Positions 44,850-55,303 of a stretch of DNA of 64,000 bases are shown one piece after another; positions within the stretch are counted from its first letter, which is position 1, and every line of letters starts with the position of its first letter. A program made the position numbers and the translations under genes. The notes beneath the pieces were generated by a model. It did no database searches. It saw nothing but the letters and a program-made list of their open reading frames with translations, and was not told the DNA's origin. Location of the stretch: sequence record MZ234031.1; one strand, written 5' to 3'. This DNA is from Escherichia phage vB_EcoM-CHD94UKE2.

Positions 44850-44922
44850 TGGGAATTAGCCAAGTTGGTAAGGCACTGGATTTTGATTCCAGGATGCAAA
44901 GGTTCGAGTCCTTTATTCCCAG
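44850..44922 (+). tRNA. tRNA-Gln (anticodon UUG)
   Basis: cloverleaf read by hand: acceptor TGGGAAT/ATTCCCA, anticodon loop TTTTGAT, T-loop GGTTCGAGTCC. Confidence 0.85.
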
Positions 44923-44923
44923 C

Positions 44924-45010
44924 GCGAGAATGGCCAAATTGGTAAAGGCACAGCACTTAAAATGCTGCGGAATGATTTCCTTGTGGGTTCGAGTCCCACT
45001 TCTCGCACCA
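44924..45010 (+). tRNA. tRNA-Leu (anticodon UAA), type II with long variable arm, CCA encoded
   Basis: acceptor GCGAGAA/TTCTCGC, anticodon stem CAGCA/TGCTG loop CTTAAAA. Confidence 0.85.
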
Positions 45011-45015
45011 AATTT

Positions 45016-45089
<74 letters not shown>

Positions 45090-45099
45090 ATTTAATTTA

Positions 45100-45173
45100 C
45101 TCCGTGTAGCTCAGTTTGGTAGAGCGTCTGCTTTGGGAGCAGAATGTCGTAGGTTCAAATCCTGCCACGGAGA
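45100..45173 (+). tRNA. tRNA-Pro (anticodon UGG)
   Basis: acceptor CTCCGTG/CACGGAG, anticodon stem TCTGC/GCAGA loop TTTGGGA. Confidence 0.8.
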
Positions 45174-45175
45174 CT

Positions 45176-45265
45176 GGAGGCGTGGCAGAGTGGTTTAATG
45201 CACCGGTCTTGAAAACCGGCAGTCGCTCCGGCGACTCATAGGTTCAAATCCTATCGCCGCCGCCA
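45176..45265 (+). tRNA. tRNA-Ser (anticodon UGA), type II
   Basis: anticodon stem CCGGT... loop CTTGAAA, variable-arm hairpin GTCGC/GCGAC, T-loop GGTTCAAATCC, CCA encoded; acceptor position 3:70 reads A:G. Confidence 0.8.
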
Positions 45266-45270
45266 GTTTT

Positions 45271-45346
45271 GCTGATTTAGCTCAGTAGGTAGAGCAACTC
45301 ACTTGTAATGAGAAGGTCGGCGGTTCGATTCCGTCAATCAGCACCA
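45271..45346 (+). tRNA. tRNA-Thr (anticodon UGU)
   Basis: acceptor GCTGATT/AATCAGC, anticodon loop CTTGTAA, CCA encoded. Confidence 0.8.
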
Positions 45347-45347
45347 A

Positions 45348-45422
45348 GGCCCTGTAGCTGGAAGGTTCAAGCAAGCGACTCATAATCGCCAGATGGTGGT
45401 TCAATTCCACCCAGGGCCACCA
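45348..45422 (+). tRNA. tRNA-Ile (anticodon CAU, presumably lysidine-modified to read AUA as in T4)
   Basis: acceptor GGCCCTG/CAGGGCC, anticodon loop CTCATAA, CCA encoded. Confidence 0.75.
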
Positions 45423-45431
45423 AATTAATTT

Positions 45432-45518
45432 GGGGAGTTATCCCGTAGAGGTAGCGGTGTGGACTGTAAATCCATTGTCATTGCGACTCGGGTGGTTCGA
45501 CTCCACCATTCCCCACCA
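45432..45518 (+). tRNA. tRNA-Tyr-like (anticodon GUA), type II; D-arm atypical
   Basis: acceptor GGGGAGT/ATTCCCC (one G-U), anticodon stem GTGGA/TCCAT loop CTGTAAA, long variable arm, T-arm GGTGG-TTCGACT-CCACC, CCA encoded. Confidence 0.6.
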
Positions 45519-45522
45519 ATTT

Positions 45523-45597
45523 GGATGTGTAGCTCAATGGCAGAGCGATCGCCTGTTAAGCGATTGGTTATAGGTTCGAATCCTATCACGTCCGCCA
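45523..45597 (+). tRNA. tRNA-Asn (anticodon GUU)
   Basis: acceptor GGATGTG/CACGTCC, D-stem GCTC/GAGC, anticodon stem ATCGC/GCGAT loop CTGTTAA, CCA encoded. Confidence 0.8.
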
Positions 45598-45601
45598 AAT
45601 T

Positions 45602-45617
45602 TGTGACAACTGTCACA
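45602..45617. repeat. perfect palindrome TGTGACA-AC-TGTCACA in spacer between tRNA-Asn and tRNA-His
   Basis: read directly; 7-bp inverted repeat with 2-nt spacer. Confidence 0.7.
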
Positions 45618-45711
45618 TTAATATCTACTTGACGCGATTATAGGGGTTGAACTGATCACTCTTCTCTTAATTTCGTGTGAAGACATCTTGATTGTTGGAG
45701 TAGGTATTAAT

Positions 45712-45787
45712 GTGGCCGTAGTTCAGTTGGTAGAACTCGAGATTGTGATTCTCGTAGTCATGGGTTCGACTCCCATCGGTCACCCCA
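45712..45787 (+). tRNA. tRNA-His (anticodon GUG)
   Basis: acceptor GTGGCCG/CGGTCAC, D-stem GTTC/GAAC, anticodon stem CGAGA/TCTCG loop TTGTGAT, discriminator C, CCA encoded. Confidence 0.8.
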
Positions 45788-45791
45788 ATTA

Positions 45792-45867
45792 CGGGGCATA
45801 GCTCAGAAGGAAGAGCAAGGACCTTCTAAGTCCTAGGTCGTAGGTTCGATCCCTACTGCCTCGACCA
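45792..45867 (+). tRNA. tRNA-Arg (anticodon UCU)
   Basis: acceptor CGGGGCA/TGCCTCG, anticodon stem AGGAC/GTCCT loop CTTCTAA, CCA encoded. Confidence 0.85.
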
Positions 45868-53071: not shown

Positions 53072-53248
53072 TAAGGCCGATACTTAGGCCTATTTACATT
53101 CAAATAACATGGGAACAACCTGGACCTCATGATTCTATGAGGGATTCCCGCCAACCTGTAATAAGGTCGAGCCCAAGTGCGGTAATGGGTAAATACAGAA
53201 ATGGACAATTCACGCGCCATGGAATGGCCCAAATTTAGAGAGAATAAA

Positions 53249-53791
53249 ATGAGAACATTTTTAACTGGTCCTTATCTATCCCTGATGAATGCTTTTACAC
53301 ACCATTCTGATGCTAGAGTAGAAGAAATTTGTAATAGTGGATTTTATGTACCTGATTCGCCACATTTATTTAAAGAATACTGCACACTTCGATTAGATGG
53401 TGGACGTCAATTCGGTAAATCAACTGCAGTAACTAATTTTGCCGCTAATTGGTTGTATGACGGTGGAACAGTTATTGTTCTTTCTAATACTTCAGCTTAC
53501 GCTAAAATTTCTGCGGGCCACATTAAAAAAGAATTTTCACGCTATTCTAATGATGATATTCGATTCCGTTTATTTACTGATTCTGTCCGTAGTTTTGTTG
53601 GTAATAGAGGTAGCAAGTTCAGAGGTTTATCGCTTTCGCGGATTTTGTATATAATCGATGAGCCTGTTAAATCTCCTGATATGGATAAAATTTACGATAT
53701 TCATATTGAAACTGTGCAATACTGCTGCAATAGTAAATGTTGCATTGGTGGTATTACTCGTCCACAGTTTTTCGTAATTGGAATGCAATGA
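53249..53791 (+). CDS. P-loop NTPase-like hypothetical protein
   Basis: Walker A GGRQFGKST and Walker B-like ILYIIDEP; ATG 53249 after AGAGAGAATAAA (alternative ATG 53201 used by ORF track). Confidence 0.55.
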   Translation: MRTFLTGPYLSLMNAFTHHSDARVEEICNSGFYVPDSPHLFKEYCTLRLDGGRQFGKSTAVTNFAANWLYDGGTVIVLSNTSAYAKISAGHIKKEFSRYSNDDIRFRLFTDSVRSFVGNRGSKFRGLSLSRILYIIDEPVKSPDMDKIYDIHIETVQYCCNSKCCIGGITRPQFFVIGMQ

Positions 53792-54117
53792 TGACAGATA
53801 CGCAACTTTTCGAATATCTTTATTTTTCGCCAAAAACTATTAAAAATAAATTGGTGAATCATTTTGAAATTTTGGCAAATAACAACGTCTTGAGCGAATT
53901 TTATCCTAAGCAATACAAATTACAAAAAGGCGTATTCAAAGGATGCAGAGTTTTGTGTACTGCTCCTAATGCAAGATTAATGAATAAAATTCCATATTTT
54001 ACCATGGAATTTATTGATGGACCTTTTAAAGGACTAATCACCCAAAGTTTAATGGCATATGATTCTGAGCCATTTTTAATTAAAGAACAATCTTGGATAA
54101 ATTTATTTTCTAATTGA
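53788..54117 (+). CDS. hypothetical protein
   Basis: ATGA junction with previous ORF; alternative in-frame ATG 53737. Confidence 0.5.
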   Translation: MMTDTQLFEYLYFSPKTIKNKLVNHFEILANNNVLSEFYPKQYKLQKGVFKGCRVLCTAPNARLMNKIPYFTMEFIDGPFKGLITQSLMAYDSEPFLIKEQSWINLFSN

Positions 54118-54123
54118 GGTTAT

Positions 54124-54486
54124 ATGAAAGCATATCAAATTCTTGAAGGCACGCATAAAGGTACTATTTATTTTGAAGATGGTATTCAAGCACGAATTAT
54201 TGTCTCTAAAACTTTTAAAGAGGACTCTTTTGTAGACCCAGAAATTTTCTATGGTTTGCATGCCCGTGAAATTGAAATTGAACCACAGCCTACGGTTAAA
54301 ATTGAAGGTGGTCAACACCTGAACGTTAACGTTCTGCGTCGCGAAACTCTGGAAGATGCAGTTAAGCATCCGGAAAAATATCCGCAGCTGACCATCCGTG
54401 TATCCGGTTATGCAGTTCGCTTTAACTCTCTGACTCCGGAACAGCAGCGCGACGTTATCGCTCGTACCTTTACTGAGAGTCTGTAA
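54124..54486 (+). CDS. autonomous glycyl radical cofactor GrcA/YfiD-like protein
   Basis: C-terminal glycyl-radical signature ...[29 protein letters not shown]; 3' half has host-like codon usage. Confidence 0.85.
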
Positions 54487-54707
54487 TGGCAAAGATAATT
54501 ATTGAAGGTTCTGAAGATGTGCTAAATGCTTTCGCCGAGTGGTTTAGTAATTCAGGCGAACAGCAATTTAATGAAGCGTGGAACATGGGTGATATTAATG
54601 GAATTTATCCTACGACAGAAATTTCTGTTCAGGGATATGGCATTCATGAACCTATTCGTTTAGTTGAATATGATTTGGGTACTGGTGAGGAAGTAAAATA
54701 TGATTGA
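54486..54707 (+). CDS. hypothetical protein
   Basis: 73 aa; TAATG coupling. Confidence 0.55.
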   Translation: MAKIIIEGSEDVLNAFAEWFSNSGEQQFNEAWNMGDINGIYPTTEISVQGYGIHEPIRLVEYDLGTGEEVKYD

Positions 54708-54966
54708 AGATATTAAGGGTTATAAGCCACATACTGAAGAGAAAATCGATAAAGTGAATGCTATCAAAGATGCTGAAGTTCGTTTAGGACTTATCTTTGA
54801 CGCTTTATATGATGAATTCTGGGAAGCACTAGATAATTGTGAAGATTGTGAATTCGCGAAGAATTATGCTGAAAGCCTCGATCAGTTAACTATTGCTAAA
54901 ACGAAACTCAAAGAAGCCAGTATGTGGGCTTGTCGTGCTGTGTTCCAACCAGAGGAAAAATATTAA
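54700..54966 (+). CDS. hypothetical protein
   Basis: 88 aa; overlapping start. Confidence 0.55.
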
Positions 54967-55244
54967 TGGCCCAATTAAGCGCAGGGTTTGGTTATGAGTA
55001 TTATACTGCCCCTCGTCGTGTATCTGTTGCTCCTAAGAAAATTCAAAGTCTTGATGATTTCCAGGAAGTAATTCGTAACGCTTTCCAGGACTATGCGCGT
55101 TATCTTAAAGAAGATTCACAGGACTGTCTCGAAGAAGATGAAATTGCTTACTATACGCAGCGTCTTGAACAGCTTAAAAACCTACATGAGGTCCGTGCAG
55201 AAGTTTCAAAGTCTATGAATAAATTGATTAGATTTAAAGAATAA
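54966..55244 (+). CDS. hypothetical protein
   Basis: track starts at GTG 54924; ATG 54966 in TAATG junction; 92 aa. Confidence 0.55.
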
Positions 55245-55246
55245 CT

Positions 55247-55276
55247 GTTTACTTTTCCTCTTGACTGTGGTATAAT
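55247..55276 (+). promoter_or_regulatory. early promoter upstream of regB
   Basis: GTTTAC 55247-55252, TGGTATAAT (-10 55271-55276). Confidence 0.7.
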
Positions 55277-55303
55277 TTTTCTATCAGTTAAGAGGAGAAT
55301 AAC

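Follow-up and report, generated by a model that had tools for sequence, protein, structure and literature searches.

Within the 64,000 nucleotides of Escherichia phage vB_EcoM-CHD94UKE2 analysed here (record MZ234031.1; referred to below as the window), a gene of 120 codons begins with AT-rich DNA of phage type and ends with DNA that has the composition and codon usage of Escherichia coli. The locus raises the question of how this host-like DNA came to lie in a phage gene, whether as a cassette joined to an unrelated reading frame or as a replacement within a homologue that the phage already possessed, and of when and from which hosts such DNA was taken. The reading that we prefer, at a probability of about 85%, is that the gene is the orthologue of T4 vs.6 (Y06I) and encodes a GrcA-type spare part, and that it is an old and diverged phage homologue in which 175 nt have been overwritten by E. 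coli grcA, an independent event of the same kind having involved Klebsiella grcA in the genus Jiaodavirus.

The gene and its product

The open reading frame spans positions 54124–54486 of the plus strand, stop codon included, and starts with ATG. A Shine–Dalgarno-like GAGG, read from the sequence, is situated at 54116–54119, 4 nt 5′ of the start codon, where it overlaps the stop codon (TGA, 54115–54117) of the upstream gene. This neighbour, on the same strand at 53788–54117, is vs.7 according to the annotation of an identical phage record and of T4. The downstream neighbour, vs.5 (54486–54707, plus strand), begins within the stop codon of vs.6, the two genes overlapping in the sequence TAATG with the vs.5 ATG at 54486–54488. 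The genes of this region are co-directional and tightly packed in the order denV, vs.8, vs.7, vs.6, vs.5, vs.4, vs.3, regB. The location of the ORF between vs.7 and vs.5 in the denV–regB block, taken with its high identity to T4, places it in the vs.6 orthologous group; identities to T4 in the region around it are 94–99%, and the protein is identical to T4 Y06I at 119 of 120 residues, with Arg73 here and His73 in T4. Positions 53200–55300 are 100% identical to Escherichia phage vB_EcoM-G3F7 and 97–98% identical to many other phages. NCBI annotates T4 vs.6 as ‘autonomous glycyl radical cofactor GrcA’, and the vB_EcoM-G3F7 copy, 100% identical to the ORF studied here, is annotated as ‘autonomous glycyl radical cofactor’. 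The source phage is a T4-like phage of the genus Tequatrovirus, and the ORF is the orthologue of an already known T4 gene; the gene itself is not new.

In the search for a promoter or terminator dedicated to vs.6, consensus matches were no commoner than in shuffled sequence, and no separate sigma-70-like promoter was found directly upstream of the gene. On the minus strand, an ORF of 129 residues with a TTG start (54103–54492) runs antisense over the whole of vs.6. It shows no sign of expression and is probably a by-product of the codon pattern of the sense strand.

The product ends in [29 protein letters not shown]. As the original prediction had stated, the 3′ half encodes a glycyl-radical signature, RVSGYAV, which is found at residues 92–98 (54397–54417) and aligns to the end of the Pfam Gly_radical domain (PF01228; 66.8 bits against a cutoff of 22.2). 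The radical glycine is Gly95 (codon 54406–54408), which in alignments with PDB chains matches Gly734 of PflB and the equivalent glycine of GrcA. The match to E. coli GrcA (PDB 6OWR) has an E value of 8.6e-42, and the protein is of GrcA type in being small and stand-alone with a glycyl-radical domain that carries RVSGYAV at its end. Its score against the NCBIfam GrcA profile TIGR04365, in an alignment of residues 20–120 with profile positions 25–126, is 153.3 bits; because this lies under the 170-bit equivalog cutoff, the protein is by that threshold a relative of GrcA and not an equivalog. For comparison, E. coli GrcA scores 234 and a Karamvirus copy without host-identical DNA scores 154.9. 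E. coli GrcA (YfiD) and the phage protein have in common the glycyl-radical motif, a two-part architecture and a homologous N-terminal region; residues 61–120 are identical as protein, and the DNA is identical up to residue 118. The phage protein is 7 residues shorter, its N-terminal half is only some 30% identical and, unlike its E. coli counterpart, it is the product of an operon in a virulent phage.

A function can be proposed from the T4 orthologue, which differs by a single residue. The passage of PMC8683613 that cites Wagner et al. 2001 describes T4 Y06I as a spare glycyl-radical protein for oxygen-cleaved pyruvate formate-lyase (PFL), in agreement with what the original prediction had said of it. 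According to that passage, PFL activase puts a glycyl radical on Y06I, which then binds the oxygen-cleaved PFL so that activity is restored. The window protein presumably acts in the same way. The host activase PflA would install the radical on the glycine of RVSGYAV, and the radical-bearing protein would dock onto oxygen-cleaved host PFL and bring back its activity. The benefit may be that, in micro-oxic conditions, fermentation in the infected cell continues once the phage has switched off the expression of host genes, and this shut-off may be why the phage carries a copy of its own. A radical domain identical to that of the host would be well suited to PflA and PflB as its host partners.

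A different client would leave the origin of the gene as we describe it. The protein might serve the phage's own glycyl-radical enzyme, the anaerobic ribonucleotide reductase NrdD, in place of host PFL; T4 encodes both NrdD and its activase NrdG. This client was suggested by Nolan et al. 2006 (PMC1524935), who proposed a role for vs.6 in nucleotide metabolism. However, the domain is identical to that of host GrcA and closest to the C-terminus of PflB (E 5e-26 to PFL chains), its identity with the host suits it to the host partners PflA and PflB, and the cited passage of PMC8683613 reports that PFL-AE activates Y06I, which restores cleaved PFL. We consider NrdD an improbable client.

The host-identical tract and its boundaries

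The composition of the gene changes abruptly. The 5′ part (54124–54301), comprising codons 1–59 and the first base of codon 60, is AT-rich, with a GC content of 0.343 and a GC3 of 0.20, and the following 175 nt (54302–54476) have values of 0.497 and 0.44, respectively. The GC content of the whole window is 0.358, and the mean GC3 over its 66 long ORFs is 0.25 ± 0.06; only 1% of 175-nt windows are as GC-rich as the tract, most of them in the tRNA cluster. The 3′ half uses CTG six times, CGT or CGC six times and CCG three times, and the 5′ half contains no CTG, CGC or CCG codon. The switch in composition and codon usage that had been predicted at about 54300 is therefore present, with its joint at 54302.

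Nucleotide alignment with E. coli grcA gives 175 identities in 175 positions from 54302, and neither a uniform composition nor a low identity to the host is seen. This tract, 54302–54476, is the longest exact match to E. coli grcA, corresponds to the K-12-type allele and encodes the whole glycyl-radical domain. The difference from Klebsiella pneumoniae over the same length is 21 of 175 nt. Taken on to the end of the gene (54302–54486), the identity is 183 of 185 (98.9%) to the grcA of every one of 5,426 complete E. coli genomes. The 5′ part gave no nucleotide match to E. coli, and a search of the whole 64 kb at megablast sensitivity matched E. coli chromosomes nowhere but in the tract.

Other GC-rich spots were considered as possible further host DNA and rejected. 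The largest such block, which is the most GC-rich of the window, is a phage tRNA cluster (44850–45867), and positions 1–40000 have no E. coli match. The cluster holds 11 tRNA genes (Gln, Leu, Gly, Pro, Ser, Thr, Met, Tyr, Asn, His and Arg); T4 itself has eight. Pieces of the segment 45267–53191 are matched at 80–90% by about 200 records of non-mobilizable plasmids from E. coli, Shigella and Salmonella, the best being CP057073 with three pieces at 90.8%; these matches may represent tRNA genes on phage-plasmids.

The direction of the transfer is from host to phage, since the tract has the composition of the host, E. coli grcA lies at normal enterobacterial distances from its relatives, and its locus is fixed. 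Over the tract, E. coli differs from Citrobacter at 15, from Klebsiella at 21 and from Salmonella at 30 of 175 positions, distances that are usual between related genera of enterobacteria. The E. coli gene is uniform throughout, and each of the 5,426 genomes has it at the same place in the chromosome, between ung and eamB. Nothing beyond the identity itself speaks for the opposite course, in which a phage would have supplied E. coli with the 3′ half of grcA, and we regard that course as effectively refuted.

The gene had been predicted to be chimeric, with a C-terminal cassette captured from host grcA. The host origin of the 3′ DNA is borne out by the 175 identities; the picture of a host cassette set on an unrelated N-terminus is not. 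A true fusion of this sort, made by illegitimate recombination between the 3′ part of host grcA and an unrelated phage ORF, would fit the sharpness of the composition boundary, and Pfam indeed returned no match for the 5′ half alone. However, when a phage profile and a host profile of the N-terminal halves alone were compared with hhalign, they proved homologous by themselves (probability 94.1%, E 1.2e-7, 47 columns, 30% identity), and the alignments to TIGR04365 and 6OWR begin at residues 20–22, inside the 5′ half.

The end of the gene tells against a fusion also. The last 10 nt (54477–54486), comprising the last base of GAG followed by AGT CTG TAA, are of phage type, E. coli having GAA AGC CTG TAA. 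Both differences from E. coli in the 3′ half are synonymous and fall in these 10 nt, with none in the preceding 175 (Fisher p = 0.003), and the same G and T recur in the distant Slopekvirus and Pseudotevenvirus copies (GAG AGT CTA TAA). This tail marks the 3′ end of the host-derived tract, a boundary that rests on two to three sites, which could instead be changes made after conversion and selected for vs.5 translation. The GAGAG in it may act as the ribosome-binding site of vs.5, and the overlap with the start and ribosome-binding site of vs.5 may explain why such tracts end short of the end of the gene.

The distribution of the gene points the same way. In the comparison of T4-like genomes by Nolan et al. 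2006 (PMC1524935), vs.6 is one of a small number of ORFs without known function that every genome shares. Homologues in phages number about 1,500 and are present in many genera of the Straboviridae and in T5-like phages. The copies of Karamvirus, Krischvirus (JSE, RB49) and T5-like phages (T5.056) belong to the same family and carry the same motif as the window protein, with a similar neighbourhood of vs genes in Karamvirus and JSE and a location among the tRNA genes in T5. They share the full-length architecture but, unlike the window copy, contain no host-identical DNA, and so show the gene as it is without a recent patch. There is little or no GC step in them, their tracts differ at 38–58 of 175 positions from each of 83 host grcA genes, and at synonymous sites the differences from every host have reached saturation (pS 0.6–0.76).

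What is found, in sum, is a segment identical to the host at 175 of 175 positions, with diverged homologous phage sequence on both sides, the 3′ flank being 10 nt long and resting on only two to three sites. Since the 5′ half is homologous to the N-terminus of GrcA and the last 10 nt are of phage type, the sequence comparisons support the view that the host DNA is an internal patch, probably produced by gene conversion, in a grcA homologue already resident in the phage. A fusion to an unrelated frame we consider very improbable.

Age of the patch and number of events

Patch and flanks are discordant in their divergence. Between the window and RB69 (Mosigvirus), identity is 71% in vs.7, 89% in the 5′ half of vs.6, 99.4% in the patch, 73% in vs.5 and 68% in vs.4. 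Comparison of Tequatrovirus with Mosigvirus gives a pS of 0.325 for the 5′ half and of 0.045 for the patch (Fisher p = 2.6e-5), and within Tequatrovirus the corresponding values are 0.124 and 0.057. Because both pS and identity differ in this manner between patch and flanks, the patch is much younger than the split of the phage sequences that surround it. The 5′ half of vs.6, at 89%, is itself more similar in the window and RB69 than are the neighbouring segments 53788–54117 and 54486–54966 (68–73%), which reflects either a stronger constraint or a movement of the whole gene between the genera later than that of its neighbours.

Identity to the host could in principle be old. Had the capture been ancient, nucleotide-level selection, through codon optimisation, mRNA structure or regulation, would have had to hold the 3′ half identical to the host; grcA is highly expressed with preferred codons, and the domain is extremely conserved as protein. 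Yet in this same domain synonymous sites vary freely between host genera (pS 0.34–0.59) and are saturated in the other phage genera (0.6–0.76), and the phage tract follows the alleles of particular host genera down to neutral differences. An ancient capture without recent transfer can be given hardly any credence.

This following of host genera is seen in Jiaodavirus, a genus of Klebsiella phages. Its vs.6 copies (such as those of KPV15, PSE-D1 and UTI-K1) represent the same gene, with the same junctions and the same kind of GC step as the window copy (0.37 to 0.54–0.56), but the patch is of Klebsiella grcA origin. It differs at 6–11 of 175 positions from K. pneumoniae grcA and at 19–21 from that of E. 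coli, the distance between the two hosts being 21; in KPV15 there is a single difference from K. pneumoniae in about 165 nt, so that the range over Jiaodavirus is 1–11. The residues TLLDAVEHPEK of Jiaodavirus, which include Leu77 and Glu81, are of Klebsiella type, and the corresponding [11 protein letters not shown] of T4 and RB69 are of E. coli type. The phage collection contains 642 records with an E. coli-type tract at an identity of at least 95%, and 202 at at least 99%; a K. pneumoniae-type tract is carried by 106 records at 95–99%. On these sequence comparisons, the Jiaodavirus patch clearly appears to be the result of a second and independent conversion, from Klebsiella grcA. The pS of the Jiaodavirus patches (0.15–0.26) indicates either that they are somewhat older or that they came from unsampled Klebsiella alleles.

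Several records touch on the Klebsiella-type patch. In KPV15 (KY000080) the 5′ half of vs.6 lacks 1 nt, which disrupts the reading frame, the Klebsiella-type tract being almost perfect; the break may be a sequencing error or the mark of a pseudogene. Klebsiella phage vB_Kpn_AM_K4 (288 kb) was rejected as a third lineage, its 5′ half being identical to that of Jiaodavirus at 171 of 178 positions; the record, which is over-long or arranged differently, belongs to that lineage. A candidate Yersinia-type patch, in contig L123, was excluded, since this contig, filed as viral, carries an entire bacterial grcA. On the host side, an extra A in a homopolymer, probably an assembly error, truncates the annotated grcA of Klebsiella aerogenes NCTC10006 (LR134122), and CP125156, a K. 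pneumoniae chromosome of 5.4 Mb, is filed as a plasmid in PLSDB.

The E. coli-type patches of Tequatrovirus and Mosigvirus admit of two histories: either both genera were converted by E. coli sequence, or a single one was and the patch then passed from phage to phage. The latter history supposes a single capture from E. coli and a later spread by recombination between co-infecting phages of the two genera. The two genera share the 5′ and the 3′ junction, their patches are only 1–3 nt apart, and T-even phages recombine freely. Against this, shared junctions are expected in any case where homology ends, the Klebsiella-type patch is left unexplained and calls for a second host-to-phage event anyway, and each genus contains exact matches to two E. 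coli alleles, albeit by way of a single hotspot site. We think that spread between phages is possible, though on balance doubtful.

For the conversion itself we propose the following course. T4-like phages have long carried a diverged homologue of grcA, in which, in the lineage of the present phage, homologous recombination with the host chromosome, to judge from the sequence patterns, swapped an internal 175 nt for E. coli grcA sequence. The stretch exchanged is the conserved glycyl-radical domain in its entirety; no other part has kept the similarity needed for pairing. The 5′ joint lies at the point where the similarity of phage and host collapses, and the 3′ joint about 10 nt before the stop, at the overlapping vs.5 start and presumed ribosome-binding site. 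The recombination may have proceeded by the phage UvsX pathway or by host RecA acting on fragments of host DNA. In Jiaodavirus the same replacement appears to have taken place independently from Klebsiella grcA.

Possible continued exchange and host labels

Once a copy had been converted, 175 bp of perfect homology would ease further exchange, and the patch might in this way stay matched to the host. One position bears on this. Site 219 (54342, plus strand), the variable third position of codon Arg73 (CGC), lies within the palindrome TCGCGA (54339–54344) and has the K-12-type C in the window. The site, a synonymous one, is C or T in E. coli and C, T or G in closely related phages. Like the window, RB69 has the C allele; further contigs of Tequatrovirus and of Mosigvirus are identical over all 175 nt to the T allele, and one Mosigvirus contig has G. 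T4 vs.6, which is the same gene between vs.7 and vs.5 and likewise encodes 120 residues with a host-like tract, has CAT (His) at this codon and differs from E. coli at two of 175 positions, the window copy being an exact match one residue away at the protein level. The polymorphism that the phages share with the host was taken at first as proof of repeated conversion and was downgraded to suggestive on account of the third state, G, in Mosigvirus. Because this third state occurs in phages, site 219 may be a mutational or selective hotspot in host and phage alike. In Jiaodavirus the isolates differ from one another at two sites at the 3′ end of the host-like stretch (ACC TTT and ACT TTC). Taken together, the allele patterns are no more than suggestive of ongoing, repeated conversion within a genus.

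A stronger claim can be put forward tentatively, at a little short of even odds: vs.6 would evolve in concert with host grcA, the host repeatedly overwriting the phage copy by way of the 175 bp of perfect homology, despite the phage being virulent and destroying host DNA. If so, the patch would be a built-in record of the recent host genus of a lineage, of E. coli or Klebsiella type, and could flag a mismatch between the label of a phage and its evolutionary host, as in PSE-D1 with its Klebsiella patch or PsgM02F and PYps5T with their E. coli patches. It is a possible sequence marker of recent host genus for therapeutic T4-like phages, with two host genera so far.

In broader terms, a strictly virulent phage would repeatedly take sequence from a chromosome under degradation, by homologous recombination into a resident homologue. 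The outcome would be a domain that stays identical to that of the host, whose activase PflA and cleaved PflB it has to work with. This would make the locus a clean and experimentally tractable case of gene conversion from host to lytic phage in the best-studied phage–host pair. A similar case is provided by the psbA and psbD genes of cyanophages, for which intragenic recombination between host and phage copies was reportedly described by Zeidner and colleagues in 2005 and by Sullivan and colleagues in 2006. There too, a phage copy of a host metabolic gene bears host-like patches visible in sequence and composition; the gene, the hosts and the phage group are different, and in vs.6 the patch forms one block with sharp limits and 100% identity to the host. 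The function of the protein is already published, and what recurrent host-matched conversion adds is an evolutionary point that can readily be put to the test. A literature search, which did not extend to older subscription papers (Wagner 2001; Miller 2003), found no paper on the mosaic at the DNA level or on recurrent host-matched patches, and neither vs.6 nor grcA is mentioned in the reviews PMC2993671 and PMC6071114.

Matching to the host is not universal, since no phage with a Salmonella-type tract was found in the phage collection; the best match, at 84%, is simply an E. coli-type tract. Several phages labelled with a Salmonella, Yersinia or Pseudomonas host carry a tract of E. coli or Klebsiella type. 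Pseudomonas phage PsgM02F and Yersinia phage PYps5T have the E. coli-type tract, at 97.6% and 99.4%, respectively, and Salmonella phage PSE-D1 has the Klebsiella-type tract with six differences from K. pneumoniae.

Two further groups of sequences lie outside these types. In two Slopekvirus copies from Klebsiella phages (L009 and L111), gene positions 179–353 encode the Klebsiella-type Leu77 and Glu81 with synonymous sites that are saturated relative to all hosts (pS 0.59–0.69), which could represent a much older conversion from Klebsiella or convergence. Six IMG/VR contigs of 32–154 kb (L113–L118) contain vs.6-like genes of 130–137 residues with an N-terminus between the phage and host types. 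In four of the six (L113–L115 and L117) the closest host tract is that of Haemophilus parainfluenzae, at 81–83%, and these contigs hint at T4-like phages of Pasteurellaceae.
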